Positions 8,701-55,209 of a stretch of DNA of 64,000 bases are shown here, piece after piece. The notes beneath the pieces are model-generated. The model searched no databases. It was not told the DNA's origin and was given only the letters and a program-made list of their open reading frames with translations. The stretch comes from Eledone cirrhosa (taxonomy: Eukaryota), in NCBI GenBank assembly GCA_964016885.1, contig OZ024740.1, positions 266,786,001-266,850,000 on the forward strand, read 5' to 3'. Made by a program: the position numbers and the translations under genes. How positions within the stretch are numbered: position 1 is the stretch's first letter; each line of letters starts with the position of its first letter.

Positions 8701-9121
8701 TTCTAGTACCAAACCAATAGCCTCCATGGATTCCGTCATAGCCGTCACAATGTTGTCCAACATGACCATTTAGGTCAGCAATAATTATGTAGTCACTGTC
8801 GGTTATTTGGGAGGTAGTGAGAATTAGCGACTCATAGAATCTGTCTTTTATAATGCCAGGCAGTCCGGATTGGGGTGAATGCACAGATATTATTGTCACA
8901 GTAGTTCTATTTAGGATAAGTCTTATTTTAATTATTCTGTCATTCACTCTATTTACGTCTATTACCTTATCTACCCATTTTTTCTGCTAACATGATTCCT
9001 ACTCCACCCAGCCCATTGTCATTTCCCACCCAGAAAAGTTTATAGCATCGTTTTTTACCCACAATGAATCTAACAGACCCACCCCTCCACCTGGTCTCTT
9101 GAACACAGCAAACATCAACTT
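5778..9121 (-). mobile_element. RTE-clade LINE, near full length, degenerate (APE endonuclease + RT, 3' tail (GAT)n)
   Basis: Fragments in order: VDVCCVQETRW, DLNGHVG, RNEEGSRILEFC, YKGKGDALDRGNYRG, EKAFDRV, LSPLLFII, YADDL, FCYLGD, AMLHGSETW. Then a 3' UTR ending in (gat)n at about 5778-5795. Multiple stops and frameshifts. Confidence 0.92.
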
Positions 9122-10954: not shown

Positions 10955-12246
10955 GAAATGAAGAAGGTTTCAGGCTCCTAGAATTCTGCGACATCAATGA
11001 CAACAACTACCTGATCACATATAGATCTGGTGAACATGCTAGCCAGATGGATTTTATCCTTACCAGAAGACGAGATAGAGTGGTAAACAGGAAATAACTT
11101 CCCTGGTGAGGAATGCACCTCCCTACATAACTTGGTAGTTAGAGACTTCAGTCAGAGCTAGATGAAACTGGAGACAAAGGGAAACCTGGAGGAGAAGGAT
11201 ATGGAAGCTAAAAGATACCTCAGCCAATAACAGATTTAGAAATATTTTGTTTGATGCCTATGACAGTAAAGAAGAACAGATAGAGGCATTCAATATAGAA
11301 AAGCATTGGGAGTTCCTGAAAGATAATTTACTGAAGGCAACAGACAAGATCTGTGGATGGAGCAGGGCTACAAGAGAAGGAGACATACTTGGTGGTGGAA
11401 CAATAAGGTAGATGTGACAATTAAGGCTAAGAGATAGGCATGGAAAAAATGGAAGAACGGGGGAAGCAGGGTACACTACATAGAAACCAGGAAGGAATCT
11501 AGGCAAAAAGTATACTTAGGCTGAAGGGAAGTGGAGGATAAAAAGGTTAAGCATGTTTTGCAGCAGGAGGACCAGAAAGAGGAGGTGTTCTGGATTTCGA
11601 GGCAGTGTATTAGAGAAAATTGTGATGTCATTAGTGAGAAGTGTGTCCGAGGTGATAAAGATGCACTTGCCCTCACAAGTGCTGAGAAGAAAGCTGAATA
11701 GAAGAGCCATTATGAAAGATTACTGAATGAGGAGAATACATGGGAGACAAAGACCCTACCCGAAGCAGACGCCATAGAGGGCCCATCAGTACAAGTCAGC
11801 GGCATTGTAGTGAGTAAGGCAATTAAGGATATGAAGACTGGGAAAGTAGCTGGTCCATCGAGTGTAGCTGCCGAGATGCTGAAAGCATCTGGGTCGGTAG
11901 GTCACACCATAACCACACATATTGTAAACCAAGAAATACTAGATGGTGTTATACCAAATGATTGGCGCAGCAGCATCATTGTCAACTGCTTCAAGGGTAA
12001 AGGAGATGCAGTAGATAAAGGAAACTATAGTGGTATAAAGCTGATGGACCAGGTCATGAATGTAACAGAAAGAGTTATAGCACAGCTGATTAGGGACTGG
12101 GTAAATCTAGGTGAGATGCAGTTTGAATTTGTGCCAGGCAAATGCACCATGGATACTCTCTTCCTTATGAGGCAGTTACAGGAAAAGTATCTAGCTAAAA
12201 GTAAGCCGCTCTACGTGGCATTTGTTGATCTGGAAAAAGCCTTTGT
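10955..12246 (+). mobile_element. RTE-clade LINE internal fragment, same family
   Basis: NEEGFRLLEFCD through ORF 11810-12277 (KGKGDAVDKGNYSGIKLMDQ...AFVDLEKAF); truncated at both ends. Confidence 0.88.
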
Positions 12247-12352
12247 TGAGGAAATCCCAACTATATCTAGCCAGTAGCATCTACCCTCCTCCACTAGTTC
12301 CTGCTCCTTACCTGTATGGGTTATGATGTTCCAGGTTCCAACTGTCAATGTT
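12241..12352 (-). mobile_element. N-terminal APE fragment of a different RTE-like LINE, opposite orientation
   Basis: Minus strand translates LTVGTWNIITHTGKEQELVEEGRCYWLDIVGISSTK, the typical APE start (TWN...DIVG.SET). Confidence 0.65.
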
Positions 12353-27039: not shown

Positions 27040-29297
27040 GGAAGAAGGGAAGAACGGGGGGAGCAGGGTACATTACATAGAGACCAAGAGGGAAGCTAGG
27101 TGACAAGTATACTTAGCTAGGAGGGAAGCAGAGGATAGAAAATTCAAGCATGTTTTGCAACGTGAGGACCAGAAACAGGAGGTGTTCAAGATTGCGAGGC
27201 AGTGTGTCAGAGAGAATTGGGATGTCATTGGAGAGAAGTGTATCCGGAATGATAAAGGTGAGCTTGCCCTCACAAGTGCTGAGAAGAAAGATGCATGGAA
27301 GAGTCATTATGATAGATTACTAAATGAGGAGAATGCATGGGAAGAAGAGACCCTACCCCAAGTAGACCCTATAGAGGGGCCAGCAGTACAAGTCAGCAGC
27401 AGCGTAGTAAGTAAGGCAATCATAGATATGAAGATGGGGAAGGCAACCGGTCCATTGGGTATAGCTGCCAAGATGCTAAAGGCATCTGGGTCTGTAGGTT
27501 ACACTATAACCACACGTATTGTTAACCAGGTAATACTAGAAGGTGTCATACCAAAAGATTGGTGCAGTAGCATCATTGTCAACTGCTACAAAGGTAAAGG
27601 TGAAGCACTCAATAGAGGAAACTACAGAGGTATAAAGCTGATGGACCAGGTCATGAAAGTAACAGAAAGAGTTATAGCACAGTTGATTAGGGACCGGGTG
27701 AAACTAGATGAAATGTACCAGGAAGAGGCACCACGGATGCCCTCTTCCTTGTGAGGCAGTTACAGGAAAAGTACCTAGCTAAAAGTAAGCCACTCTACCC
27801 GGCATTCGTCGATCTCGAGAAAGCCTTTGACAGAGTTCCACGTGCTGTAATCTGGTGGGCTCTTAGAAAACTAGGAGTAGATGAATGGCTTGTGAAAGCT
27901 GTACAAGCCATGTATAGGGGAGCAGTCAGCAAAGTTAGGATTAGCAATGAGTATAGCGAGGAATTTAGCGTACAGGTTGGGGTCCACCAGGGCTCTGTTC
28001 TTAGCCCTCTCCTGTTCATCATAGTCCTGCAGGCAATAACGGAGAAGTTTAAGACCGGATGCCCATGGGAACTCCTGTATGCAGATGACCTCGCACTTAT
28101 AGCTGAATCTATGGTAGAACTAGAGAAGAAATTCCAAACTTGGAAGCAGGGACTAGAAAGAAAGGGTCTCAAAGTCAACATGACAAAGATTAAGGTACTT
28201 GTAAGTAGACGAGAAAACAGAACCCACATCCCCTCAGGGAAATGGCCTTGCTTAGTATGTAGGAAAGGTGTAGGTAGGAACTCCATTCTCTGCCCCAAAT
28301 GCAAACAATGGGTATACAAGAGATGTAGCAGGATCTCAGGAAGCTTAATTAAGAATGTAGGCTTCACATGCAGCAGCTGTACTGGGACAGCAAGCAGCAA
28401 ACAGCCACAGGAAACAAGTACCACCAATCTCTGGGAGGGCTCTGTAGAGACAGTAGACAGCTTCTGCTACCTAGGTGACCGAATTAGCAGCGGATGTGGG
28501 TGTTCAGAAAGTACAATAACTAGGTAAGAACAGGATGGAAGAAGTTCAGGGAACTCCTACCACTGCTAGCTGCAAAAGGCTTCTCCCTCAAAATGAAAGG
28601 CAGACTGTATGATATGCGTGTATCCGAACAGCAATGTTACATGGTAGTGAGACCTGGGCGCTGAAGGTGGAAGACTTACGTAGATTAGAGAGAAACGAAG
28701 CCTGCATGCTCCAATGGATGTGTAATAGTAATATACGCGAACGAAAAGCATAAATGAATTGTGAGAGAGACTGAGCATAAGAGGAATCAAATGCTGTGTG
28801 CAGGAGAGGCGGTTGCGTTGGTATGGACATGTGATGCGTATGAAGGATGACAGCTGTATAAAAAGGTGCAGAGCACTAGAAGTCGATGGAAACCGCGGAC
28901 GAAGATGACTTGGGATGAGGTGAAAAAAGCCGACCTTATCCAATTACACCTCTCAAAGGCGATGACATACGACCGTGACCTCTGGCGTCACGCAGTAATA
29001 CAGAGTACCCGACCTCCCATGGGTACAAGCTGAAGCATATAGACAATATGCCCCCACACCCTCCCACTGCAAGGTGGTCGTGGAGGTGTAGGCGCCACGG
29101 AAAAAGCACCCAGCACTCACTGTAAATGAGGTTGGTGTTAGGCAGGGCATCCAGCTGTAGGAATCAAGCCAAATCAGTTCCTGTATGAGCAAGGCATGGT
29201 CAGCCGACCAGACACTGCCCACAACAGGACAACCCGTCTAACCCATGCTAGCGTGGAAGAACGGACGTAAAACGGTGATGATGATGATGATGATGAC
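27040..29297 (+). mobile_element. RTE-clade LINE, 5'-truncated, with complete 3' tail
   Basis: ORFs 27155-27754 and 27751-28527 (FVDLEKAFDRV, GVHQGSVLSPLLF, LLYADDL, FCYLGD), then LRWYGHVMRM and a 3' UTR ending in (gat)n at about 29276-29297. Confidence 0.93.
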
Positions 29298-30368: not shown

Positions 30369-33300
30369 TAAAAAAAACCCCGTATAACCGACTCCTAGAG
30401 GAGTTTGAGGACAGGATCATTACCATGGTCCGGACCATTAGATTCAGGAAACCACCGCGAAACCCTGACAGAAGTGCATTCCCGTCTGGTCTCACATCTA
30501 CTGTAAAAATGATCAGGAATAGCCCTGGCATCATCGTACCAGCCGATAAAACAGGAAACTTATATTATTTGGAGTACAAAACTTACAACAAATGGATTAC
30601 AAATGAAATAGCTAAAATATACAAAACATCAACTCGGGAAAACCTAGCACACATAAACAAACAAGCGAAAACAATAATGACAGAACTGAGCATTGATGAC
30701 AGGGCTCAACCCTACAACCCTAGGACACCGAGACTATCTATTAAAGACCATAAACCGGACTTTCAGTCAAAACTACCGGCCAGACTCATAGCCCCTCTAA
30801 ATCGGACCTAGGTAGACTAAGAAAATCAATCATTGACCGGGTTATACCTGAACTTAGAAATAGAACTAAACTCAGCCTATGGTCATGTACAAAGGAGGTA
30901 ATCGACTGGTTTTGAGGCATTGAAACTAAGTCGAATGTTCGACTAGTCCAATTGGACATTACGAACTACTACGCCACTATATCCCAAATCATCCTTAACA
31001 AGGCACTGATCTCAGCCATGAACAGATCAAGCCTCACTAGAAACGAAGTGGACATCATACTAGTAGCTAGGAAAACTTTACTAGAATTTGACGGTAAATT
31101 GTGGGAGCGACAGAATAGACCAGATAGCTTCGACATTACTATGGGATCGACTGACTCCGCATAACCGACGCCTAGAGGATCATTACCATGGTCCGGACCA
31201 TTACAGATATAGTAGGCCTATATCTCTTAAATATATTAAAAGACGAGATCCCCTCCTTGGGCGGTGGCTTATACCGTGCCCTACTCATGACCCGTGGACT
31301 CAATAATAGCCAATTAGATAGACTACACAAACGACTTAGGTATATCTTTAAGACCCAAGGATTAGCGGTAGAAATTGAACCTAACAGTACGACAGTAAAC
31401 TTTTTAGATGTCACTCTGGAATTAGACACAGGTCTCTACCGTCCATACTACAAACCTAATGAAAATCTTAAATACGTCAACAGACACTCCAACCACCCTA
31501 GGAGCATAATTAACTCAATAGTTAAAAGCGTTTCCTAGAGTGTCCACCCTGTCAGAAAATAGAACTATCTTCAACCAGCACGCGGAATACTACAACGACC
31601 CAGCTAGAACCGCAACGCCGCTAAACATAATCGGACCCTTAGAAACGAACATTGACGAGGTCGCCACACCTAGAAAAAATAATAACCTAAGACCCTCTTT
31701 AGCCGGCAGCGCAGGCAGAGTTACACACAACTGTCAAGGAGACAAAGCTATACTCTCCAACCCAATAAGGACTCTGGCTATTGCACACGTTTACGTAGTA
31801 ATAGAGACAAAAGACATAACGCCAATAGATTACTAGGAACCCCTATGACATATACGCATGACCAAAAGGCACCCACACTAACACCTAACCACAAAAACCT
31901 CACTAAACACGATAAAGCCCGAAGTTGACCTGTCACACGTTGCCACCAATATACTGGGAACTTTCTTCAGGGCTCTTGAACAATCTTTTCCACACACATA
32001 AATACCACAAGCTCTTCAATAGACACACTGTAAAATTCTCTTTCTCCACAGCACCAAATCTAGGCCACACAATATCACACACTAATAGGACAAAAATACG
32101 CAAACAATTGGTTGCTCCACAACAAACAACTACCACAACCCAGAACAAAACCACATACACAACGCAACACAACAACCAACATGCCAGCTCCACACAACAT
32201 GCCACCAACCGACAACGTGCCACCACACCGGTAACACCCAATTGCAACTGCAAAAAACGGGCAGAATGTCCACTAAACGAGGAGTGCCTCGTTAAAAACA
32301 TTGTTTACCGGTGTGATGTCAAAGCTGGCAATAAAGAGTACTCATATATAGGTGCGACCTCCACTACGTTTAAGGAGCGCTGGTATAACCATAGAAGCTC
32401 CTTTAAACACAGGCTGAAACGATCCCAAACTAGACTGGCCGATTTGATCTGGGACCTCAAGGACAGGAACATCGAATTCCAGATCATATGGTCAGTCAAA
32501 AGACACGTCGCCCAACTCCCCAGTGACAGAAACCACTGCAGGTTATGCCTGGCCGAGGCGGCTGAGATAATTAAATTAAAATCTGCCATAAACCCTAGGT
32601 CGGACATAATTATCAATTGCAGACACACCAGGTTGAACACATTTTCTGCACAAACATTCGACTGAGGGCTGTACACTAACCATGACCCAACATAATATTA
32701 ACCACCTTTGCCCTGTCTCACCGTCCCTCATCTCAGTGAATTTGTTTTATAACATGTAACCCTTTGTAAGTCCAAATTTTGTATATATCATGCCGCATCC
32801 ATCACTCCCACCAAAAGACACATCGCCATACACCCCTCATGTTAGTACCATTGTACCATACTTCAACAATCATTAACATCATTAACATCGCCAACACACA
32901 CCTTCCCTCCCTAAACAACGCTAGTGTGTGTGTCTGTGTGTAAGTATATTCATATGTACAACGCCATCTCCATTGGCTCTCCCCCTCCCTCTATCTATGT
33001 ACTACACCATCCCTACTGACACCCCCTCCCTCTATATATACACACACACACACGCATATATGTGTATATATATATGTGTATGTATGTGTGTGTATGTGTG
33101 TGTATGTGCATATATGTCAGTGTGTATACACGCATGTGTATGTATACAATGTTTTTGTCAGACTAAGTGTGTCTATGTATGTATCTCCTCATTGTATTTG
33201 ACACCACCAACACATCCACCACACCACCATAAACACCATTACCACAAACAACAACACCACACCCACATCACACACAATAATCAGCCACAAATATAGCCAA

Positions 33301-39899: not shown

Positions 39900-41018
39900 T
39901 CTATATATATAAAACTGAGGTTGTCTGCCTGTCTGTCTACTAAAACCTTCGGCACACATCTCCTCCTTTAACCGTACGTTCAAATTTCGGTGAAATTGCT
40001 AGACTCATAGATGAAGATCCGGCGGAGACATCGGTCAAAAAAATTTTCAAATCGACCCACGCCAAGTGCAAAAATCGAATTTGTAATGTATTGATTTTTC
40101 AGTTCATATGTATAAATAGAGATGAGAGACGAGTTATTTCCCTTTTATGGCGTCATTTGCTTTTCTATTTATGTTACGTATAAATGACGCGGTGGACCGA
40201 GAAGAACAATTTCATGCAAAGACAAGACCAAGTTTATGGTGTAAATGGAGTCGTTAAACTAATATTCTATTTAAAATAACCGAATGATTTCCAGCCCCAG
40301 AGTTTAAGAATGATGTAAATAAAATTGTAAACGAAAATGACAGGTTATTAAAATAGTTGTTTCTACTTTTGGCACAAGGCCAGCAATTAACCAGTAGATT
40401 ATTGGTTCTTTATTTTATCGACCCCGAAAGGCAAAGTTAACCTCGACGGGATTTTAACTTGGCCTTAAAATAGTAAAAGTAAAGTGAAGATTTAGGCCAG
40501 TACATACGTATGCGCCGACGAACATGCGCATACATATACATACGCACACACAAATACATACACACACGCGCGCGCGCGCGCGTGTATAAACCTTATGCAT
40601 TTCTACAGTATTTTCACCAAACTTAAGACATAGGTTACTTATGTACTCCGGATGGTCATGGGCACTTTCATTTTTCCAGATATTGATTATAGCGCCTCCC
40701 GGCAGATAACCCTCTTTAACCACTTCCTTGGAGTCGACTGAAGCACTGCAGTGCAATGCAAAAAAACGTCATAACTTCTGGAGTTCGCAACCGATTTTCA
40801 CAAGACGTGACACATGAGCTACAGATGTTCTACAGATGAATGTGAACTCTCAGAATTGGCATATATTGAGTAGGGGATCTCTGGGAGCAGGAACCCCCTT
40901 TTGGAAAAAGCCGATGATTTTGTAAAAGTATAGTTTTCGAAGCAGCATTGAAGTAGTGACATAAATGGTATACATAACTGCTATTTAATACCCGAGCAAC
41001 GCCGGGTACCTCTGCTAG
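39900..41018 (+). mobile_element. Non-autonomous Helitron (family A), second copy
   Basis: Collinear and highly similar to 849-1985, with the same TC and hairpin-CTAG termini. Confidence 0.88.
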
Positions 41019-41040
41019 TATATATATATATAATCTATAT

Positions 41041-41246
41041 ATAGGAAAAAGTATGACCCCGACGGCAGAGCTCAAGCCGTTTCGACGGCTATTTCTGGAC
41101 TCTCGACGGGATTTTAACTTTGCCTTAACATTGTAAAAGTAAAGTGAAGATTTAGGCCAGCACATACGTATGCGCAGACTTCTGTAGTCCATAAATAGCC
41201 GTCGAAACGGCTTGAGCTCTGCCGTCGGGGTCATACCTTTTCCTAT
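41041..41246. repeat. 61 bp inverted repeat enclosing an 84 bp spacer copied from Helitron family A
   Basis: 41041-41101 pairs with 41186-41246. The spacer matches 40442-40515 and 1394-1468. Confidence 0.9.
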
Positions 41247-41327
41247 TCCCACTCTACTACCCTAAGTATTGAGTACTCTGGTGCGTTATGGTCCATCTGG
41301 TTCCTTACCACAATTCCTTTGTTATAA

Positions 41328-42241
41328 TCTATATATATAAAACTGAGGATGTCTGTCTGTGTGTGAGTTTGAATCCCTGAAACTAAAGAAGCACTCAACC
41401 GATTGTTTTCAAACTTTACACATATAATACTTATGTTTCAGGGAGTGTTCTGAGCAAAAGAAATTTCAAATTTTCAATGGCCTAGGGACCGCATTAGGCG
41501 ATTTAGCGATCTCTCTCTATAATTCTTAGTTTTTCTCTTTTTAGATAGATACATACATATAACGTCGCGCCCATATAATATCTGTCTATATGTCTGACTG
41601 TCTGCATTACGTCACTTCCCTGAGGATGTCTGTCTGTGTGTGTGTCTGTGAGTTTGAATCCCTAAAACTCGAGAAGTACCCAACGGACATTTTTCAAACT
41701 TTACATGTGTATTACTTATGTGTCAGGGGGTGTTATGCACATAATTCAACTTTTTAATCCCCTATGGCCCGCATTAGTTGAAAAACTGCGTTTTTTCAGA
41801 TTTTTAGGGGGTTTTTTAGGTGTTACGTTAGACTGATTTCCTTGAAATTGTTACTATGTATTAGTTAGTCTCTTCATACCGTGAGCAAAGAAAATCCAAC
41901 TTTTTTATGACCTAGGGCAAGCATTAGGTGAAAAACTTTATTTTTAAAGCTTTTTAGGGCTTTTTTGAGGCGTTACGTCTAGCCGATTTTTCCCGAAATT
42001 TCAAGGCATATTATGCACATAAAAAAAATTCATTTTCTTGATCCCCTAGGGCCCGCATTATGTGAAAACCTGTATTTTTCCTGCTTCATCGAGGAAAATC
42101 TTAAAGATTATCCAGCCATCAGAGTATTCGGTTTATTTTCTTTACATTTTGTCCAGGCATGCAGTTTTTCCACGATTAGGTCTGTTGGCGGCCCGCGTTC
42201 CAAAATACCTTATCCCGTGCAACGCCGGGTACCACTGCTAG
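41328..42241 (+). mobile_element. Non-autonomous Helitron (5' end related to family A, different body)
   Basis: tctatatatataaaactgaggatgtctgtctg start, 3' cccgtgcaacgccgggtaccactgCTAG, and an internal diverged duplication. Confidence 0.8.
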
Positions 42242-43031
42242 TATATAATATAAAAGAAAGATGTTTATTGGTTGGTTGGCTGGCTGGTTGGTTGATTGGT
42301 TGGCTGGCTGGTTGTTTGGTTGGTTGGTTGGCTGGCTGGTTGGTTGGTTGGTTGAATCACATGAAAACTATACACACACACATTCACACACAAATACATA
42401 CACATACGTCTAAAGAGAGAGAGACACATAGGGAGAGGTATAAAGGGTGAGATAGGCCATTATATATATAGAGAGAGATACAATTAAAGTGTCAGATATT
42501 CAGAGAGAGTAACTTCCCATGAAAGTCTAGAAACGGCTTAAACTATAGGTCCTTTGATCTATAGGAAGGTTTAACAATATTATGGTAGCTTTTATAAAGT
42601 CGTTTTACAGTCTTTGATTTTACAGAACAAAGAAAAATTGATGCTATTTGAAATAAATCTACCCTCCAACTTTTATCTATATACTACTTACAGACCGTAC
42701 TAACGAAGCTAAACACTTCAGAAGCAATGTTATGCGGTATATTGCTGTGTTTCAGATGATGTCCTTTGGTGCTGAAAAAGATCATACTGACTATCGTTAT
42801 TTCACAACATTTAAATCCAAGGCAGATGCTACCATTTAATCGGCAGTTTACTCCTTCAGCCTAATAAGAAATTTTATGATTGTTCTTTTTATGTCTCTCT
42901 CACACACACTCACATACACACACACATTACAGTTTTATCTCATACCAGACAACACATCCAATACAGTTGTTTTCTCTTTCATCCGTCTTCCCGTCACTGT
43001 TCTCCCGGGCGAAGCCGGGTACCTCAGCTAT
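42242..43031 (+). mobile_element. Non-autonomous Helitron-like element, termini slightly decayed
   Basis: tatataatataaaagaaagatg followed by (tggt/tggc)n near the 5' end; 3' cccgggcgaagccgggtacctcagCTAT. Confidence 0.6.
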
Positions 43032-43122
43032 TATAATATATATATATATATTTATATATTATATCATATTATATTATATTATATTGTATATATAATATAT
43101 AATAGTATATATATATATATAT

Positions 43123-43337
43123 ATATTTAATGTATAATAAACAACACAGTATAATTACCTCATTACCTGAGGTTTCCCGAACAGGACGAACACAAGAGAC
43201 GTCCGCATTCGTTTGTCAGATAAGGCAATATCTGCCTTATCTGATGAACGAATGCAGACGTCTCTTGTGTTCGTCCTGTTCGGGAAACCTCGGGTAATGA
43301 GGTAATTATACTGTGTTGTTTATTATACATTAAATAT
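43123..43337. repeat. Near-perfect 215 bp palindrome (about 105 bp arms, 5 nt spacer)
   Basis: 43123-43227 is the reverse complement of 43233-43337 apart from a few transitions. Confidence 0.95.
43233..43304 (+). ncRNA. Type I hammerhead ribozyme motif (right arm of palindrome)
   Basis: UGCCUUAU-CUGAUGA-aCGAAUG...UGUUCGg-GAAAC-CUCGG-GUA-AUGAGGUA; stems I, II and III all pair. Confidence 0.7.
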
Positions 43338-43401
43338 TTAGCTCTGTTACTTACATAGAGCACTCTTCATTCCTTTTACTTTTTCCACGGAAACTTCAAC
43401 A

Positions 43402-43449
<48 letters not shown>

Positions 43450-44105
43450 GTGTATTGAGTAGTTCAAAACTCAAGCATTCCTTTACAATGAAATAGCTGA
43501 AAGAAAAGAAATATTTCTGAGCCGTATAATACAAGTAAATATAAATTAATATATATGATGAAACACAAATACCAACATATCTGTGTTTATATTGTAAAAT
43601 AAATTAAGTTAGCTAGAATGAAATATACTAATTATAATATTACAGTTTGCCTATCTCGATTTAAAATAATAAAACAATAAAAACAAACAGTATTGGCAAA
43701 TGGCCATGGTGTTTTGACAAATTAAAATTTCAAAATCAAACCTGTTCCGTAGATAAGTTTAAACTTTAAAATCCAAATATGTTTCGAGATGAATAAGTGT
43801 AAGGATATCGTGTCCAGCTCACATCAGTAAACACCCTGAACAAATTGATATGCTTCACTTCTAAATATTTTAAAAGACTGTTTAACGCACATGGTTTCCC
43901 AGTTTCTAGCCAGCCTCATACTCGTACTGCTAGAAATAACAGCCGTATATATGGGGCTACTATCAGCTCAACGTAAGGAGCAATTATATTAAGTGTATTG
44001 AGTTCAAAACTCAAGCATTCCTTTACAATGAAATTTCTTTTACAATATAAACACAGATCTGTTGGTATTTGTGTTTCATCATATATATTAATTTATATTT
44101 ACTTG

Positions 44106-44132
<27 letters not shown>

Positions 44133-44136
<4 letters not shown>

Positions 44137-44976
44137 TAATAAAATAATGAATAAACAAAGAAACAGTTCCTTATATTAAAAAATTCATCATTTTACGATC
44201 GTTTCTAGGATATATATGTGTTAGAGTTGGTATGCATATTCTATAGATCTATGTACAATATTTATACAAACTATTAGAGGGAATATACATACCTACACAT
44301 ATATATGCTGTCTTCAGAAATAATGATATTTGTTTATTGAAAAAAACAAAGATTCAATATAATAGGTCTGTTTGGGAACAGGTTTTGAATTGACCAATAG
44401 AGAGATAGTGAGGGTCAGGATAGTAATATAGTAGTAGAAGAACCTTAAATTATGGGTAGAGGAAGGTAGATTTCAGTTTTGGATGGAAAAGAATATTATG
44501 AATGAAGGATTATTTTAGGGAAGAAATAGGTCTTATGCTGACCTCAGAAATAATTTTATTTGTTCATTGAATAAAACCAACAAAGATCTAATATATTCTG
44601 TCTGTATGGTAAGAGGTTTAGAATTAACCATTAGAAAGATAATAATTGGCCAAATGGTAAAATAGTAGTAATTGAAGCTTATTTTAGGGGTGAAACTGGG
44701 TCAAGTGGTCAGTAAAAGGTATACAAGCAGTTGCTGTTATAAAATAGTAATGCCAATACAAATATCTAAGGTGACTAAAGTTTTACGATAAGAATGTTAG
44801 TGAAAAAAATACATCTATGAAAAGAATATAAATTAATTTAATTGATGGGTATATTTATATTGATAAAATTATACTAATACATATAGGTATTTTAAATAAG
44901 AGTTAGATGCAGTTGAAAAGTGCTGTTAAAGATGAGGGGAAATTAAAAGAATATAAAAATAATATATATATATATA

Positions 44977-45028
<52 letters not shown>

Positions 45029-45057
45029 TATACACATGCACATACACATATACACAC

Positions 45058-45154
<97 letters not shown>

Positions 45155-45163
45155 CATGCACAT

Positions 45164-45196
<33 letters not shown>

Positions 45197-45683
45197 CACA
45201 CATACACACTTACATATACATATAATTATTGGAGGGGGGGATTAAATTTATTGGTGAGAAATAATAAAAAATATATATAGTTTTCAAGGAACATAGAGTC
45301 ATAACCTGAAGTTAAAGCATTATATATGTTTACTTAATGGTATCAGTTTTAGGAAATGATAGTTGTAAGAAGGAAAGCAAAATTATGTAGTTCATCAGTA
45401 GTGGAGTATTAATTATAGGTTAACTAAATTAAAAATAGTTTATATATTAATTTCTAAAGTGTATATTAATTAGGTTTATAATATTTAAAGTAGAATTATG
45501 TAGTTCATCAGTAGTAGAATATTAATTATAGGTTAACTAAATTAAAAATAGTTTATATATTAATTTCTAAAGTGTATATTAATTAGGTTTATAATATTTA
45601 AAGGTTTTTCTCAGTTTATGAGTACACGATATTATTAATTCCTGTCCCTTATTTAATAGGATATCCTTAGATTTCATTATTTC
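44133..45683 (-). mobile_element. 3' fragment of a related PLE (end of GIY-YIG coding region, 3' region with microsatellite, terminal hammerhead)
   Basis: 45585-45683 is a diverged copy of 49252-49356 (EIMKS.DILLNK.QELIISC.HKL). The terminal segment 44133-44340 aligns with 45905-46125. Flanked by (TA)n. Confidence 0.75.
44185..44326 (-). ncRNA. Type I hammerhead ribozyme motif with long stem II
   Basis: Minus strand: UCAUUAUUU-CUGAAGA-[cagcAUAUAUAUGUGU...ACACAUAUAUAUccua]-GAAAC-GAUC-GUA-AAAUGAUGA. It has a 9-bp stem I, an intact core and the palindromic stem III ACGAUCGU. Confidence 0.75.
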
Positions 45684-45692
45684 AGTCTAGAC

Positions 45693-45772
<80 letters not shown>

Positions 45773-45957
45773 GATAAATCTACCAAGAGTTTACGGTAGT
45801 GTCCAATCCGTATGAAGAACTCAATGTATTCCGGATATCATGGAAAGAAGAGATGTAATGAAAATCCACTTTCGGTGAAAGATAAACGGTATACAGAGTC
45901 AAGATAAAATATTAAACAAATAATGAACAAACAATTCCTTATATTAAACAAAAAAAG

Positions 45958-46112
45958 TTCACTATTTAACGATCGTTTCTAGGGTATATATGTGTTATAA
46001 TTGGTATGCATATTTAACAGATCTATGTACAAAATTATACAAAATTATACAAATTATCAAGATTAAATATACATACCTAACTCATATATACGCCGTCTTC
46101 AGAAATAATGAA
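45958..46112 (-). ncRNA. Type I hammerhead ribozyme motif with long stem II (GUU site)
   Basis: Minus strand: UUCAUUAUUU-CUGAAGA-[cggcGUAUAUAUG...CAUAUAUACccua]-GAAAC-GAUC-GUU-AAAUAGUGAA. Confidence 0.7.
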
Positions 46113-46879
46113 GTATATTTATTGATAATAACAACAATTCAAAATATCAGTTCAAAATTGACCAATGAAAACACAAAGGGTTAAAAGCAGTTTGGTGTGT
46201 GTATATACATGTAAAACCTTACACATATTTTACAATAATGTGTGTATAATTTGTATGTGCATACTAAAAAGATGGATGCAAACACAAAATTTCAAGGTTA
46301 ATATCTCTGTAAGCTTAATGCGCTGATAAGATACGCAATGATACTTATGGAGTCAAGCATATAAATATATTTTTTTCATACTCACACATATCAGTATAAT
46401 CACACATACATGTGCATATATGCATAAATATACACATAACCACGAACATACAAACACACACACTCCCCCACTCACATTTATATATGTGGATATAAAATCA
46501 TAAGCAAATAGAAATTAAGTCACTCACATAAAAACACTGGTACACACATTTCAAGATCAAGATACAGAAATTAGGTGGGAGGGGGGGGGAGGGGTCAGTA
46601 TTAGATTGTCAGACCAGACAGCCTAATATAAATGTATCTATAAATTAAGAAAAATAAAAAAATAAAAACAATAAAATATAATAAATATAATATAATGTAC
46701 ATACACATACAGATATACATACACATACATACATGTACGCGCACATAGAGATATCTACACATACATACATACACACATACCTATACTGTCATACACATAC
46801 ATACATTTACACGAACATACACATACACATATAAAAAGATATAAATACACACACACTCACGCGCAACACATACACACAT

Positions 46880-46920
<41 letters not shown>

Positions 46921-46941
46921 TATACACACACACATAGACTC

Positions 46942-46973
<32 letters not shown>

Positions 46974-47282
46974 ATACAAACATATATATCCCCACACTCA
47001 TACCACCATAAATACACATACAAACACCCACATGTATATATATATATATATATATACATATATATCCACACACACACACGTACATATATATATATATACA
47101 TACACACACATACACATACATACATATATATACACACACATAAAAAACAGACATGCACATATATATATATATATATATATATATTTTTCATTACTCTTAT
47201 ATATACACACAGTATATATACATACACAACCTCACTTATACACATATACACATAAGTTATATTACAATAATAATAAAGAATA

Positions 47283-47319
<37 letters not shown>

Positions 47320-47474
47320 TATATATATATACACATACATACATACACATACATACAAACACCTAAATATATACATACATAAATACACACATACGAATAA
47401 AGACATATATTCACACATAGACGCCTATATACACATATATATATATATACATATATATATATATCTATATATAT

Positions 47475-47517
<43 letters not shown>

Positions 47518-49251
47518 CACACACACACACACACACAGACACACATACACACTCACATATATATATATATATATGTGTATGTGAGTGTGCGCAAATACAT
47601 ATATATATACACACACACATACAAACACACACAAACACATACATATGCATACGTGCACACACACACACATATATCACATAGATACGAAGATAAACATATA
47701 AATAGAGAGACATACAAATATATACAGAACCCATATACACATACATACAAACACGCATATACATATACATACATATATACACATATATATATTCCTATAT
47801 ACAAGCATACACATACATACACATATATACATATACATACACATATACATACCACACATTCACATACACATACATATATAATACATATATATACATATAT
47901 ATACATACATATGTATGTACAATCATATATACACACTCAATCTTACATTCATATTTACATGCTCATATATGTATTTTTATATTTAGAAATAAATACCAAA
48001 ACCTATATAGACACCCACCTACACATATATTCATACATATACGCTTACAAAAACAGATGATAATAGTATGGGGGAAAGGGGGGGTTTGGAGAAGGGGATC
48101 AAAGTAAATATATGTTTCAAGAAACATATAATATTTTCCGTATCTTAATTCAATGTATGTTCTTACATATTTTCAGTGCTAGGAAATACGAAATCTATGC
48201 ATCCCAAAATAAAAAAGTATACCATTAATCATATGTTAACTAAACCAAAGATAGTCAACATATTGATTTCCAAGGTGTAAATTAGTTAGGTTTATAATAT
48301 TTGAAGCAGAATTATGAAGTCAAACAGTAGTAGATTATTAATTACATTATAACTAAATTAAAGTTAATAACGTTATGGTATCAATATTAGGAGATGAATT
48401 TAGTAATAGGGAAAAGAAACCCAAATAAAAATAAAATAAAGTATTACATCGGTAGTAGCATATAAATTATATGTTAACTAAATTAAAAATTATATATTTA
48501 TTTCAATAGTATACGTTAATTAGTATATGTTAATTAGGTATACAATACATAAAGCAGATATTGTATTTCATCAATAGCATAATATAATTATATGCAAATA
48601 AAAATCAAAATTAATACGCATACACATACATATACATACACATACACATATATATACATATACACACATATATATATATATATACATATATATACACATA
48701 TATACATATATAGTCACATAAATATACATACAGATACACATACAATACACACATATACATATACATATAGATATACATATCTTTTTCAAAAAATTGCACA
48801 GAATATATTAACTAGGTATATATCCAAAACACATCCCATTCTATGATTACATGACATTCTGCAATTCGTCTGTACAAGGATACTAATTTTAAGCAAATTA
48901 AAATTAAAGTTTTAGGTTGATTAAAACTAAAACCAAATAATAAATATATTTCCAAAATGTATATTAATTAGGTCTATAATACTAAAAATTCTTTCTCCGT
49001 CATAGGATACATGATATTATTTTGTTATATTTTATCTGTAAAAGAATTATAATAAAAAAAATTATAATAAAAGGTTAAAATAAATTAAAATTAATCTATA
49101 AATTAAATTACTGAGTATATATTAGTAATATTTAAAGGTTTTTCAAAATTTATGATTACATAATATTTTCTCATCTGTAATAAAATATTAATTAAATTAA
49201 ATTTATAGGTTAACTAACATTTAAATTAAATTAAATTCTAGAATAATGTTA

Positions 49252-50820
49252 TTAATTAGGTTTATAATATTTAAATGTTTTTTTTAGTTTATGATTACAC
49301 GATATAATTAATTCCTGTCTTTTATTTAATAAGATATCCCTAGACTTCATTATTTCAAATAGTTCTTGGGAACATAATCTACATTCCTTTCTATTATTTT
49401 GATAAGGGGTGGCTCTTTTGAGCACACTCCAGGTCAAATCATATTTTATATTTTTATTTTTATAACTATTGATTTTTTCTGCTAGAGATGTTGTATTAGC
49501 CAGTGCGGCATTTTTAAAGCTATGTTTGTGGGTATTATACCTTGTCTTAAAATTGTTAGAGGTAGCTCCTATATATGAGCAAATAGAATCTTTAGTTTTA
49601 ACATTACATTTATAGACTATGTTGTTAACAAGACAATTCCCTTTTAATGGGCAGTTTGTTTTGTTTCTACAGTTACATCCTTTCGTTAATTCTGTATTTG
49701 AGGAGATATTATTGTTAATTTGATGTACTGGTGGTATACTTATGGTTTTCTTACATTTATATGCATTATATGCACTTATATTTTGTTTTATGTTATTTGT
49801 TGTAGAGTATGAGAATTTAACTGTAGACCTATTTAAGATTTGATGGTATTTGTGGTTTGGCGGGAAGTTTTTCTCAAGGATATAAAAAAATTTTTTAGCA
49901 ATATTATCCTTAACTTGTAAATTAAAAGGAGCATTATACCAAGTAACTCGTCTATTACGGTTTCTATGTTGTTTATTATTTTTATTATTTTTATATGTTG
50001 TATCATGATTTTTACTAGGAGGATTAATGTTAATGATCTCACCACAACTATTTTTAGTTATATTTGTAGATTTAGGTGTTTTATCTTTTTTATTAGGAGT
50101 TTTATTATTAATATTTATTATAGTCGTATGATGAGTAGTTTTTTGAGGGTTACTATACTTTATATTAGAAGATTTAGTATTTTGGGGTATACTGTGGGTG
50201 GCATTTAGGTGTGTACTTTTCATTTGGTGTTTGTTGGTAATATTATGCTGTATGCTTTCAGTATTTTTAGTAGAAGGTATATACTCTAATCTATTTTTGT
50301 GGCCACTTCTATCTAGAGCTTCATTATAAAAGGTCGCATTTTTATCAAATACATCTTGGTTAGAAGAAAGGTTAGAAATTCTAAGTGATATATTATATGC
50401 AAGGTTTTTAAGGATAGATTTAGGGTGATTAGATTGTGAGTGTATGTAATGTAAGTTTTGGTTAGGTTTATGGTAAGGTTGGTATATACCCGTAGCTAAA
50501 TCTAAAGTTATATCTAGGAAATTTACTACTTTACTTGTTTTTTCAAAAGTAATATTAAGATTATAATAGTCTTTAAGGAAAGTTCTAATATGCTTTTTGT
50601 TTTTTTCGATTTCTGAAAGGCTAAGGTTGTTAGAAAGAAGAAGACAGTCATCACGATATAAACCACCTTTGAGGTGGGGAAAAGAGGCATTTATGTTGAA
50701 AAGGAGAAAGAGGCCCACAAGATCAGTAATTTGGGCGGAATCGCTTGAACCCATAGTAATATCAAAAAGATTACTGTAAGTGTTTCTGGTAATATCAAAA
50801 AGATTACTGTAAGTGTTTCT
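49252..50820 (-). CDS. PLE ORF, C-terminal part (RT motif B onward, thumb, N/K/T-rich linker, CxC...CP zinc linker, GIY-YIG), uninterrupted
   Basis: FDITMGSSDSAQITDLVG, GLYRDD, VNFLDITLDL, SNHP, CNCRNKTNCPLKGNCL, IVYKC, YIGAT, RYNTH, CRLC..E, CNH. Confidence 0.9.
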   Translation of the reverse strand, partial: RNTYSNLFDITRNTYSNLFDITMGSSDSAQITDLVGLFLLFNINASFPHLKGGLYRDDCLLLSNNLSLSEIEKNKKHIRTFLKDYYNLNITFEKTSKVVNFLDITLDLATGIYQPYHKPNQNLHYIHSQSNHPKSILKNLAYNISLRISNLSSNQDVFDKNATFYNEALDRSGHKNRLEYIPSTKNTESIQHNITNKHQMKSTHLNATHSIPQNTKSSNIKYSNPQKTTHHTTIININNKTPNKKDKTPKSTNITKNSCGEIININPPSKNHDTTYKNNKNNKQHRNRNRRVTWYNAPFNLQVKDNIAKKFFYILEKNFPPNHKYHQILNRSTVKFSYSTTNNIKQNISAYNAYKCKKTISIPPVHQINNNISSNTELTKGCNCRNKTNCPLKGNCLVNNIVYKCNVKTKDSICSYIGATSNNFKTRYNTHKHSFKNAALANTTSLAEKINSYKNKNIKYDLTWSVLKRATPYQNNRKECRLCSQELFEIMKSRDILLNKRQELIISCNHKLKKTFKYYKPN

Positions 50821-50821
50821 G

Positions 50822-53800
50822 AACCTTTGGCATTGAAAAGTCCACACTTCAACCTGAAAGATCACAAATCTAATTTTAACTCTAATCCTTCTATTAGACT
50901 TATATGTCCCTCCAAATCAGATATTGGAATAATTAGCAAAAAAATTTTAGATAGAGTCATCCCACAAATAAGAAAATACGTTATTTTACCACTCTGGGAA
51001 AACACCTCCCAGGTAATTAATTGGTTTAAAAATATTAGGTGTAAATCTTCTGCTTCTTTCCTACAATTTGATATAGATAATTACTATTCTTCTATATCAC
51101 CCATACTCCTGAACAAAGCATTAATATTTGCTAAAAATAGATCTAATTTAACTTCGGATGACATTAACATTATTACACATGCTAGACAAACACTTATTGA
51201 ATTTCAGAATGAATACTGGACCAGAAACACTTACAGTAATCTTTTTGATATTACTATGGGTTCAAGCGATTCCGCCCAAATTACTGATCTTGTGGGCCTC
51301 TTTCTCCTTTTCAACATAAATGCCTCTTTTCCCCACCTCAAAGGTGGTTTATATCGTGATGACTGTCTTCTTCTTTCTAACAACCTTAGCCTTTCAGAAA
51401 TCGAAAAAAACAAAAAGCATATTAGAACTTTCCTTAAAGACTATTATAATCTTAATATTACTTTTGAAAAAACAAGTAAAGTAGTAAATTTCCTAGATAT
51501 AACTTTAGATTTAGCTACGGGTATATACCAACCTTACCATAAACCTAACCAAAACTTACATTACATACACTCACAATCTAATCACCCTAAATCTATCCTT
51601 AAAAACCTTGCATATAATATATCACTTAGAATTTCTAACCTTTCTTCTAACCAAGATGTATTTGATAAAAATGCGACCTTTTATAATGAAGCTCTAGATA
51701 GAAGTGGCCACAAAAATAGATTAGAGTATATACCTTCTACTAAAAATACTGAAAGCATACAGCATAATATTACCAACAAACACCAAATGAAAAGTACACA
51801 CCTAAATGCCACCCACAGTATACCCCAAAATACTAAATCTTCTAATATAAAGTATAGTAACCCTCAAAAAACTACTCATCATACGACTATAATAAATATT
51901 AATAATAAAACTCCTAATAAAAAAGATAAAACACCTAAATCTACAAATATAACTAAAAATAGTTGTGGTGAGATCATTAACATTAATCCTCCTAGTAAAA
52001 ATCATGATACAACATATAAAAATAATAAAAATAATAAACAACATAGAAACCGTAATAGACGAGTTACTTGATATAATGCTCCTTTTAATTTACAAGTTAA
52101 GGATAATATTGCTAAAAAATTTTTTTATATCCTTGAGAAAAACTTCCCGCCAAACCACAAATACCATCAAATCTTAAATAGGTCTACAGTTAAATTCTCA
52201 TACTCTACAACAAATAACATAAAACAAAATATAAGTGCATATAATGCATATAAATGTAAGAAAACCATAAGTATACCACCAGTACATCAAATTAACAATA
52301 ATATCTCCTCAAATACAGAATTAACGAAAGGATGTAACTGTAGAAACAAAACAAACTGCCCATTAAAAGGGAATTGTCTTGTTAACAACATAGTCTATAA
52401 ATGTAATGTTAAAACTAAAGATTCTATTTGCTCATATATAGGAGCTACCTCTAACAATTTTAAGACAAGGTATAATACCCACAAACATAGCTTTAAAAAT
52501 GCCGCACTGGCTAATACAACATCTCTAGCAGAAAAAATCAATAGTTATAAAAATAAAAATATAAAATATGATTTGACCTGGAGTGTGCTCAAAAGAGCCA
52601 CCCCTTATCAAAATAATAGAAAGGAATGTAGATTATGTTCCCAAGAACTATTTGAAATAATGAAGTCTAGGGATATCTTATTAAATAAAAGACAGGAATT
52701 AATTATATCGTGTAATCATAAACTAAAAAAAAACATTTAAATATTATAAACCTAATTAATAACATTATTCTAGAATTTAATTTAATTTAAATGTTAGTTA
52801 ACCTATAAATTTAATTTAATTAATATTTTATTACAGATGAGAAAATATTATGTAATCATAAATTTTGAAAAACCTTTAAATATTACTAATATATACTCAG
52901 TAATTTAATTTATAGATTAATTTTAATTTATTTTAACCTTTTATTATAATTTTTTTTATTATAATTCTTTTACAGATAAAATATAACAAAATAATATCAT
53001 GTATCCTATGACGGAGAAAGAATTTTTAGTATTATAGACCTAATTAATATACATTTTGGAAATATATTTATTATTTGGTTTTAGTTTTAATCAACCTAAA
53101 ACTTTAATTTTAATTTGCTTAAAATTAGTATCCTTGTACAGACGAATTGCAGAATGTCATGTAATCATAGAATGGGATGTGTTTTGGATATATACCTAGT
53201 TAATATATTCTGTGCAATTTTTTGAAAAAGATATGTATATCTATATGTATATGTATATGTGTGTATTGTATGTGTATCTGTATGTATATTTATGTGACTA
53301 TATATGTATATATGTGTATATATATGTATATATATATATATATGTGTGTATATGTATATATATGTGTATGTGTATGTATATGTATGTGTATGCGTATTAA
53401 TTTTGATTTTTATTTGCATATAATTATATTATGCTATTGATGAAATACAATATCTGCTTTATGTATTGTATACCTAATTAACATATACTAATTAACGTAT
53501 ACTATTGAAATAAATATATAATTTTTAATTTAGTTAACATATAATTTATATGCTACTACCGATGTAATACTTTATTTTATTTTTATTTGGGTTTCTTTTC
53601 CCTATTACTAAATTCATCTCCTAATATTGATACCATAACGTTATTAACTTTAATTTAGTTATAATGTAATTAATAATCTACTACTGTTTGACTTCATAAT
53701 TCTGCTTCAAATATTATAAACCTAACTAATTTACACCTTGGAAATCAATATGTTGACTATCTTTGGTTTAGTTAACATATGATTAATGGTATACTTTTTT

Positions 53801-54493
53801 ATTTTGGGATGCATAGATTTCGTATTTCCTAGCACTGAAAATATGTAAGAACATACATTGAATTAAGATACGGAAAATATTATATGTTTCTTGAAACATA
53901 TATTTACTTTGATCCCCTTCTCCAAACCCCCCCTTTCCCCCATACTATTATCATCTGTTTTTGTAAGCGTATATGTATGAATATATGTGTAGGTGGGTGT
54001 CTATATAGGTTTTGGTATTTATTTCTAAATATAAAAATACATATATGAGCATGTAAATATGAATGTAAGATTGAGTGTGTATATATGATTGTACATACAT
54101 ATGTATGTATATATATGTATATATATGTATTATATATGTATGTGTATGTGAATGTGTGGTATGTATATGTGTATGTATATGTATATATGTGTATGTATGT
54201 GTATGCTTGTATATAGGAATATATATATGTGTATATATGTATGTATATGTATATGCGTGTTTGTATGTATGTGTATATGGGTTCTGTATATATTTGTATG
54301 TCTCTCTATTTATATGTTTATCTTCGTATCTATGTGATATATGTGTGTGTGTGTGCACGTATGCATATGTATGTGTTTGTGTGTGTTTGTATGTGTGTGT
54401 GTATATATATATGTATTTGCGCACACTCACATACACATATATATATATATATATGTGAGTGTGTATGTGTGTCTGTGTGTGTGTGTGTGTGTG

Positions 54494-54536
<43 letters not shown>

Positions 54537-54703
54537 ATATATATAGATATATATATATATGTATATATATATATATGTGTATATAGGCGTCTATGTGTGA
54601 ATATATGTCTTTATTCGTATGTGTGTATTTATGTATGTATATATTTAGGTGTTTGTATGTATGTGTATGTATGTATGTGTATATATATATATATATGTAT
54701 ATA

Positions 54704-54740
<37 letters not shown>

Positions 54741-55049
54741 TATTCTTTATTATTATTGTAATATAACTTATGTGTATATGTGTATAAGTGAGGTTGTGTA
54801 TGTATATATACTGTGTGTATATATAAGAGTAATGAAAAATATATATATATATATATATATATATGTGCATGTCTGTTTTTTATGTGTGTGTATATATATG
54901 TATGTATGTGTATGTGTGTGTATGTATATATATATATGTGTACGTGTGTGTGTGTGGATATATATGTATATATATATATATATATATACATGTGGGTGTT
55001 TGTATGTGTATTTATGGTGGTATGAGTGTGGGGATATATATGTTTGTAT

Positions 55050-55081
<32 letters not shown>

Positions 55082-55102
55082 GAGTCTATGTGTGTGTGTA
55101 TA

Positions 55103-55143
<41 letters not shown>

Positions 55144-55209
55144 ATGTGTGTATGTGTTGCGCGTGAGTGTGTGTGTATTTATATCTTTTTATATGTGTAT
55201 GTGTATGTT
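50822..55209 (+). mobile_element. Second, inverted copy of the same PLE; has about 400 bp more 5' RT sequence, a nonsense codon at 52069-52071 and a +1 frameshift near 52730; runs into the assembly gap
   Basis: ORF 50827-52071 (LKDHKSNF, RLICPSKSDIG, QFDIDNYYSSI, GLYRDD). 51220-55209 is the reverse complement of 46814-50790. Confidence 0.9.

Follow-up and report, generated by a model that had tools for sequence, protein, structure and literature searches.

Within a 64,000-nucleotide stretch of the Eledone cirrhosa genome (the window), a short palindrome lies beside a (TA)n tract, and each of its arms resembles a hammerhead ribozyme. A first, sequence-only reading took it for a 215-bp, MITE-like pair of ribozymes that might represent a new class of Penelope-dependent element and would place a self-cleaving motif in transcripts from either strand. 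Is this fold-back a mobile unit in its own right, and if not, what is it and how was it made?

A one-tailed palindrome in a (TA)n tract

The palindrome itself is real: two arms of 105 bp each (43123-43227 and 43233-43337) flank a 5-nt centre, ATATC, and are mismatched at only four positions (43245/43215, 43246/43214, 43256/43204, and 43292/43168). The proposed length of 215 bp missed a 66-bp tail present on the right arm only, through which the element reaches 43403; the whole is thus asymmetric and 281 bp long. Compared with the majority of 105 arms from the same subfamily, each arm carries two CpG changes, which account for all four mismatches and agree with the earlier suggestion that the arms decayed at CpG sites from a common CTGACGA ancestor. 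The window copy contains no ORF, and both of its arms end shortly before hammerhead stem I, at a 5' boundary that recurs among copies. The features are as follows.

43029..43122, no strand: left target flank, a degenerate (TA)-rich tract
43123..43227, minus strand: inverted, tail-less copy of a pseudo-LTR (pLTR), 105 bp; core CUGACAA at 43219-43213 (G8>A), predicted inactive
43228..43232, no strand: head-to-head centre ATATC, found once among 47 near-full dyads
43233..43337, plus strand: direct pLTR copy, 105 bp, with a type I hammerhead at 43233-43304
43338..43403, plus strand: 66-bp tail, which in full-length copies runs on into the 5' UTR and ORF
43404..43446, no strand: right target flank, a (TA)21 tract in which the first 4 nt are also a match to the sequence that continues the element

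Other repeats adjoin the locus. To the left are a GC-rich hairpin ending in CTA (43003-43029) and nearby dispersed repeats (41316-42086), which we take to resemble Helitron-type ends. On the right, a dispersed repeat at 43447-44113 has 82-bp inverted ends (43525-43605 and 44032-44113) and a direct duplication of approximately 50 bp (43442-43494 and 43990-44034); related pieces occur at other loci of the family.

The arms belong to a Penelope-like element

The fold-back is not a chance structure, because its family is dispersed genome-wide and reversed-pattern controls returned 0 matches. Exact 30-mer markers gave 91 matches for the window's subfamily (SF1), 1955 for SF2, and 946 for the young SF3. 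Many copies carry the same 66 bp beyond the arm end and then stop at (TA)n, and others stop at the position equivalent to 43337; 43338-43403 is therefore an optional tail. Elsewhere in the genome, arm plus tail constitutes a pLTR that is preceded by the 3' UTR of an ORF for a reverse transcriptase (RT)-endonuclease and continues into the 5' UTR of that ORF. At L061 to L064, the same pLTR lies downstream of a common, microsatellite-rich 3' UTR and RT-endonuclease ORF. At L121, a pLTR 96.7% identical to the window arm and tail leads from the tail through the 5' UTR into the ORF; no 3' pLTR was found in the approximately 13 kb downstream of it, as would be expected of a source copy lacking a 3' pLTR, but later damage would explain this equally well. 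Partial tandem copies (pLTR-ORF-pLTR) occur at L123, L125, and L260, with unit lengths of 3706 bp (L123) and 3645 bp (L260). Judged by eye, most collected loci are inserted in (TA)n, as is the window copy. An inverted, 5'-truncated copy sits at the 5' end of the elements at L061, L062, L121, and L210.

The ORFs of L121, L123, and L260 contain YRDD and IVY...YVG motifs, as expected of an RT with a C-terminal GIY-YIG-type endonuclease, and the IVY...YVG region of the family protein lacks inner cysteines. Translations of L260 and L128 carry the Hydra-clade motifs KRMRWKA, FSDKT, CSCRIKSEC, CTLC, and CPH, and the sequence motifs given for that clade are all present (RWK, DKT replacing DKG, a CxCX5C linker, CxxC, CxH, and no CCHH; PMC8557442). 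A Pfam search of the family ORF returned RVT_1 only, at E=0.0028 and below the cut-off; it gave no GIY-YIG match, and pieces of the ORF gave nothing useful. A PDB search had 0 matches, and there was no informative name among the 120 listed of 1591 protein homologue matches. Judging from these motifs and from comparison by eye, we assign the parent to the Hydra clade of Penelope-like elements (PLEs), and the fold-back arms are almost certainly its pLTR; the Penelope link in the first reading was well founded. The Neptune clade had been our first candidate and was dropped since the motifs fit Hydra.

The N terminus of the family protein closely resembles, by eye, that of Hydra-1_Obim, described with the Hydra clade by Craig et al. 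(2021, PMC8557442). The Hydra-1_Obim hammerhead differs in sequence, so the window belongs to another family. Its unit of 3.6 to 3.7 kb is larger than the <3 kb general for the clade, a size that is a tendency and not a diagnostic (PMC8557442), and it exceeds 3 kb because of the long, microsatellite-rich 3' UTR; its tail is 66 bp against 30 to 40 bp in the clade (PMC8557442).

Six loci on contig 28 (L046, L055, L056, L058, L059, and L060; G000:C28:34-54 Mb) have flanks that are 91 to 98% identical, indicating that some copies were multiplied by segmental duplication rather than by retrotransposition.

The hammerheads are decaying and probably passengers

That the arms carry type I hammerheads was correctly seen, as was the state of their cores. 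The right arm has CUGANGA, GAAA, and NUH within three stems: an 8-bp stem I (43233-43240/43297-43304, with two G.U pairs), the core CUGAUGA (43241-43247) and GAAA (43284-43287), a long stem II, a stem III of 3 bp capped by a loop of 3 nt, and a GUA site whose last base is 43296, after which cleavage is predicted. Stem II is weakened by a G>A change at 43256, and the noncanonical A.G pair at its base, also recognized from the start, is ancestral (71 of 83 arms). The left arm departs at G8>A, giving the core CUGACAA; a change at G8 abolishes hammerhead cleavage, the variant assayed being G8C (PMC11167929).

An Rfam scan of 40000-46000, which the sequence-only reading had proposed as a check, found no hammerhead at E<=1, only below-threshold miRNA and snoRNA matches that included mir-1179. 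In an alignment of 13 arms, 97.7% of cells were paired with seven one-sided changes; there was no two-sided change and no excess over shuffles, so the alignment gives no independent proof of the fold. We therefore call these hammerheads putative, on the grounds of motif, pairing, and likeness to published Hydra-clade hammerheads, among which a tiny loop III and an extra base on either side of stem II are common (PMC8557442).

Would such a locus yield a cleaving ribozyme? For the right arm alone, the hammerhead fold reaches -12.7 kcal/mol versus -19.9 kcal/mol for the best fold, and the entire element folds as a single hairpin of -190.6 kcal/mol. Each strand contains one sense hammerhead, which is transcribed after its own complement. 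Read-through RNA is accordingly modeled as a 105-bp double-stranded hairpin predicted to hide the ribozyme, not as a cleaving ribozyme. When stem III is this short, hammerheads reportedly cleave poorly and depend on dimer formation (PMC4209133), and an inverted pair would be unable to supply a direct dimer. In inserted copies, the core decays at the neutral rate: non-CpG change amounts to 27/958 in the core and 168/6176 elsewhere (P=0.83), and this comparison detected no selection on the ribozyme. Cores are still intact in 57 of 83 arms. The idea of a self-cleaving motif on either strand finds no support, given the changed G8 of the left core, this neutral decay, and the predicted pairing of arm with arm; we infer that the hammerheads are passengers in the fold-back and that the locus is probably without function.

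Head-to-head dyads are likely built separately at each locus

An exact 29-mer search for the window's subfamily gave 56 matches at 52 loci, all of which were inspected. Head-to-head dyads consisting only of pLTR occupy 30 of these loci, and the remainder are solos or carry 3' UTR or body sequence; the window dyad is no one-off, and the earlier expectation of many palindromic copies was right. A search by centre pattern gave 53 near-full dyads genome-wide, of which 47 were analyzed (those left out include one nested duplicate).

So many dyads, together with a most common centre, ATAT, found in 10 of the 47, are what would be expected if a palindromic non-autonomous unit, MITE-like or retrozyme-like, were copied whole by a Penelope protein. 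The remaining evidence largely refutes this explanation, which we consider highly improbable. The 47 dyads have 33 different centre strings, and the window's occurs only once. No fixed differences distinguish one arm from the other: among 24 SF3 dyads, tailed and untailed arms are not distinguished by any alignment column, the two arms of one dyad bear the same sub-variant marks and have private variants in common, and arms diverge by 1.7% within dyads versus 3.2 to 3.7% between dyads. Arm lengths vary between the 52 loci, and sizes range to 5.3 kb. A MITE would be duplicated intact as a unit of constant form, bounded on each side by terminal inverted repeats; here the tail is asymmetric and both centres and arm lengths are variable. 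The proposal of a MITE-like unit or new element class thus fails on the ORF-bearing PLE to which the pLTR belongs, the locus-specific centres, and the recurrence of the same layout at up to 5.3 kb.

Tails follow a strict rule. None of the 30 SF1 dyads has two tails (28 have one clear tail, and 2 have a shortened second arm), and of the 47 near-full dyads, 42 have one tail, none has two, and 5 have none detectable. The rule extends to longer insertions. Within the first 100 of the 946 SF3 matches there are 20 opposite-strand neighbours within 7 kb, all 20 head-to-head and spaced 149 to 5275 bp apart; one tail is present in 19 of these pairs, and in the remaining pair the partner is an internal tandem pLTR. 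The first 100 SF2 matches include, by eye, 16 head-to-head and 2 tail-to-tail neighbours. The window layout recurs in a 4.4-kb version at L210. The window dyad is the short end of a size continuum that represents the family's normal insertion pattern. At one locus (L160, G000:C8:13618540-13619740), both dyad arms continue into the same 28-bp flank that is not tail, unlike the one-tail rule; this pattern may reflect flanking DNA that folded back, or an artefact of the assembly.

Two priming events probably account for the one-tailed dyads

We put at roughly 85% the probability that the window fold-back is two head-to-head pLTR copies in (TA)n, one of them tailed, that probably arose together in one insertion and are decaying. 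Target-site duplications are unreadable inside (TA)n, and the single event can for this reason only be inferred. Its mechanism was probably double priming, with two short cDNAs joined head to head. In this model, the element protein would nick both strands of the (TA)n target; reverse transcription would start from one nick at the tail end and from the other at the pLTR end; the two cDNAs would terminate early, often 2 to 4 nt upstream of hammerhead stem I; and the cDNA 3' ends would be joined through short AT microhomology or filler. Precedents for the parts of this scheme include a published inverted, 5'-truncated copy with a one-ended tail (PMC8557442) and, in vitro, two RT start sites with nicking and extension of both strands (PMC11167929). 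Against it, the repeated ATAT centre would also be produced by copying of a unit, although this centre is present in all three subfamilies.

A cDNA begun at the tail end could instead snap back at its 3' end and copy itself, with the endonuclease trimming the second arm at the pLTR end. Such self-priming, proposed previously for head-to-head palindromes (PMC3846280), accounts for the single tail and for the private variants common to both arms, and in 12 of the 30 dyads the tail-less arm is indeed nested in the tailed arm, with the two about equal in 7. In the other 11, however, the tail-less arm reaches further 5', and a simple fold-back cannot make a tailed arm that is the shorter at its 5' end; at the extreme, the tailed arm is a tail-only fragment. 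Tail-less ends also occur on non-inverted copies. We regard self-priming as unlikely, and the family pattern favours two separate priming events, although later deletions could also yield non-nested arms.

The mini-dyads might also be long head-to-head insertions whose centres were deleted over time. Consistent with such a collapse, pairs of <200 bp become more frequent with divergence, making up 3 of 20 in SF3, 8 of 16 in SF2, and 14 of 16 in SF1 (the latter two counted by eye), where within-dyad divergence is approximately 1% (n=24), 4% (n=8), and 5% (n=2), respectively. Collapse should leave 5' ends across the AT-rich 3' UTR, whereas 5' ends cluster immediately before stem I in 30 of 91 SF1 arms (q -8 to 5) and in 8 of 100 SF3 arms. 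Moreover, mini-dyads with near-identical arms are present in the young subfamily, and the share of arms that are pLTR-only differs strongly between SF1 and SF2, which are similar in apparent age. We judge collapse to be quite improbable. Some breakpoint calls need care: on inspection by eye, about 7 SF1 arms called at q9 really start at q1-3, and internal deletions account for about 3; SF3 calls at -49 and about -225 are stops caused by reference variants and not true ends. We rejected the hammerhead cut site as a source of 5' ends, as starts at q66-67 show no pile-up (2 of 91 SF1 arms and 0 of 100 SF3 arms).

The double-priming model leaves the excess of pLTR-only arms to be explained. These make up 82 of 91 arms in SF1, 14 of 31 in SF2, and 13 of 100 in SF3 (SF1 versus SF3, P=3e-29), shares that plain truncation fails to explain; age may contribute to the SF1 excess. 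The excess would be accounted for if the source RNA began at the edge of the pLTR. Because SF1 arms are so largely pLTR-only and their 5' ends cluster before stem I, we tentatively raise the possibility, doubtful as it is, that SF1 spread mainly as a passenger encoding no protein. In this scenario, a borrowed dimer of Penelope protein would prime a short RNA from the 5' edge of the pLTR at each of the two start sites, and the ribozyme palindrome would be built de novo at each landing. If so, the one-tail rule would report, across the whole genome, on a two-ended integration step so far glimpsed only in vitro.

Relation to known systems

An insertion pattern that is already known appears here in its shortest form, and the fold-back represents no new element class. 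Head-to-head pLTR palindromes are in print for Penelope insertions of Adineta vaga (Arkhipova et al. 2013, PMC3846280), which resemble the present family in their head-to-head inverted pLTRs, junction palindromes, optional tail, and solo pLTRs. In A. vaga, an ORF-bearing copy adjoins the inverted pLTR and target duplications of 8 to 10 bp are visible, whereas each half of the fold-back in the window is pLTR-only and (TA)n is the target. Also in print are hammerheads paired on opposite strands: in Schistosoma (Cervera and de la Pena 2014, PMC4209133), pairs of minimal PLE hammerheads 100 to 700 bp apart were ascribed to truncated PLEs, and these share with the window family the extra base at the stem II base and a short stem III, there palindromic and dimer requiring. 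The window hammerhead is unlike them in its 8-bp stem I and 3-bp stem III, and the available text of that study contains no analysis of centres or tails. For Penelope-13_HM of the Hydra clade, a hammerhead is recorded on both strands, together with a 5'-truncated copy in inverted orientation (PMC8557442).

For the integration step, the closest counterpart is the Poseidon element PAc of Anolis (Frangieh et al. 2024, PMC11167929), in which two RT start sites bound the tail, both strands are cut and extended, and targets are AT rich; PAc inserts without need for hammerhead cleavage. It belongs to another clade, and its ORF starts inside the hammerhead, while the ATG of the window family lies approximately 120 nt past the tail. 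Non-LTR retrozymes (bioRxiv 10.64898/2026.07.22.740005) are likewise coding free, carry a type I hammerhead, and derive from PLE pLTRs. They are direct tandem repeats; the window arms are an inverted pair with one sense hammerhead per strand, and no tandem array was found at the locus.

A literature search, subscription papers and Repbase aside, found no paper devoted to pLTR-only dyads. Taken alone, the fold-back is ordinary transposon debris. What matters is its family, in which thousands of insertions, through their strict one-tail rule, non-nested arms, and sharp 5' boundary, limit the ways in which PLEs can integrate, a process that the cited papers describe as unresolved. Such stumps are also mistakable for MITEs, for microRNA hairpins (compare the mir-1179 match above), or for paired ribozymes.

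Other retroelement sequences in the window

At 46814-55209, the window contains an 8.4-kb head-to-head inverted repeat with 3990-bp arms that are 99.4 to 99.6% identical. Both arms carry the RT-endonuclease ORF of a different Hydra-like element, so that this repeat shows the layout of the fold-back in long form; an N gap adjoins its right end, and an assembly error is possible. A third Hydra-like RT-endonuclease copy, frameshifted, begins right after (AT)n at 30395-32584. Fragments of LINE-type endonuclease/reverse transcriptase ORFs, presumably RTE-like, are found at 7376-8986, 11702-12274, and 27104-28524.
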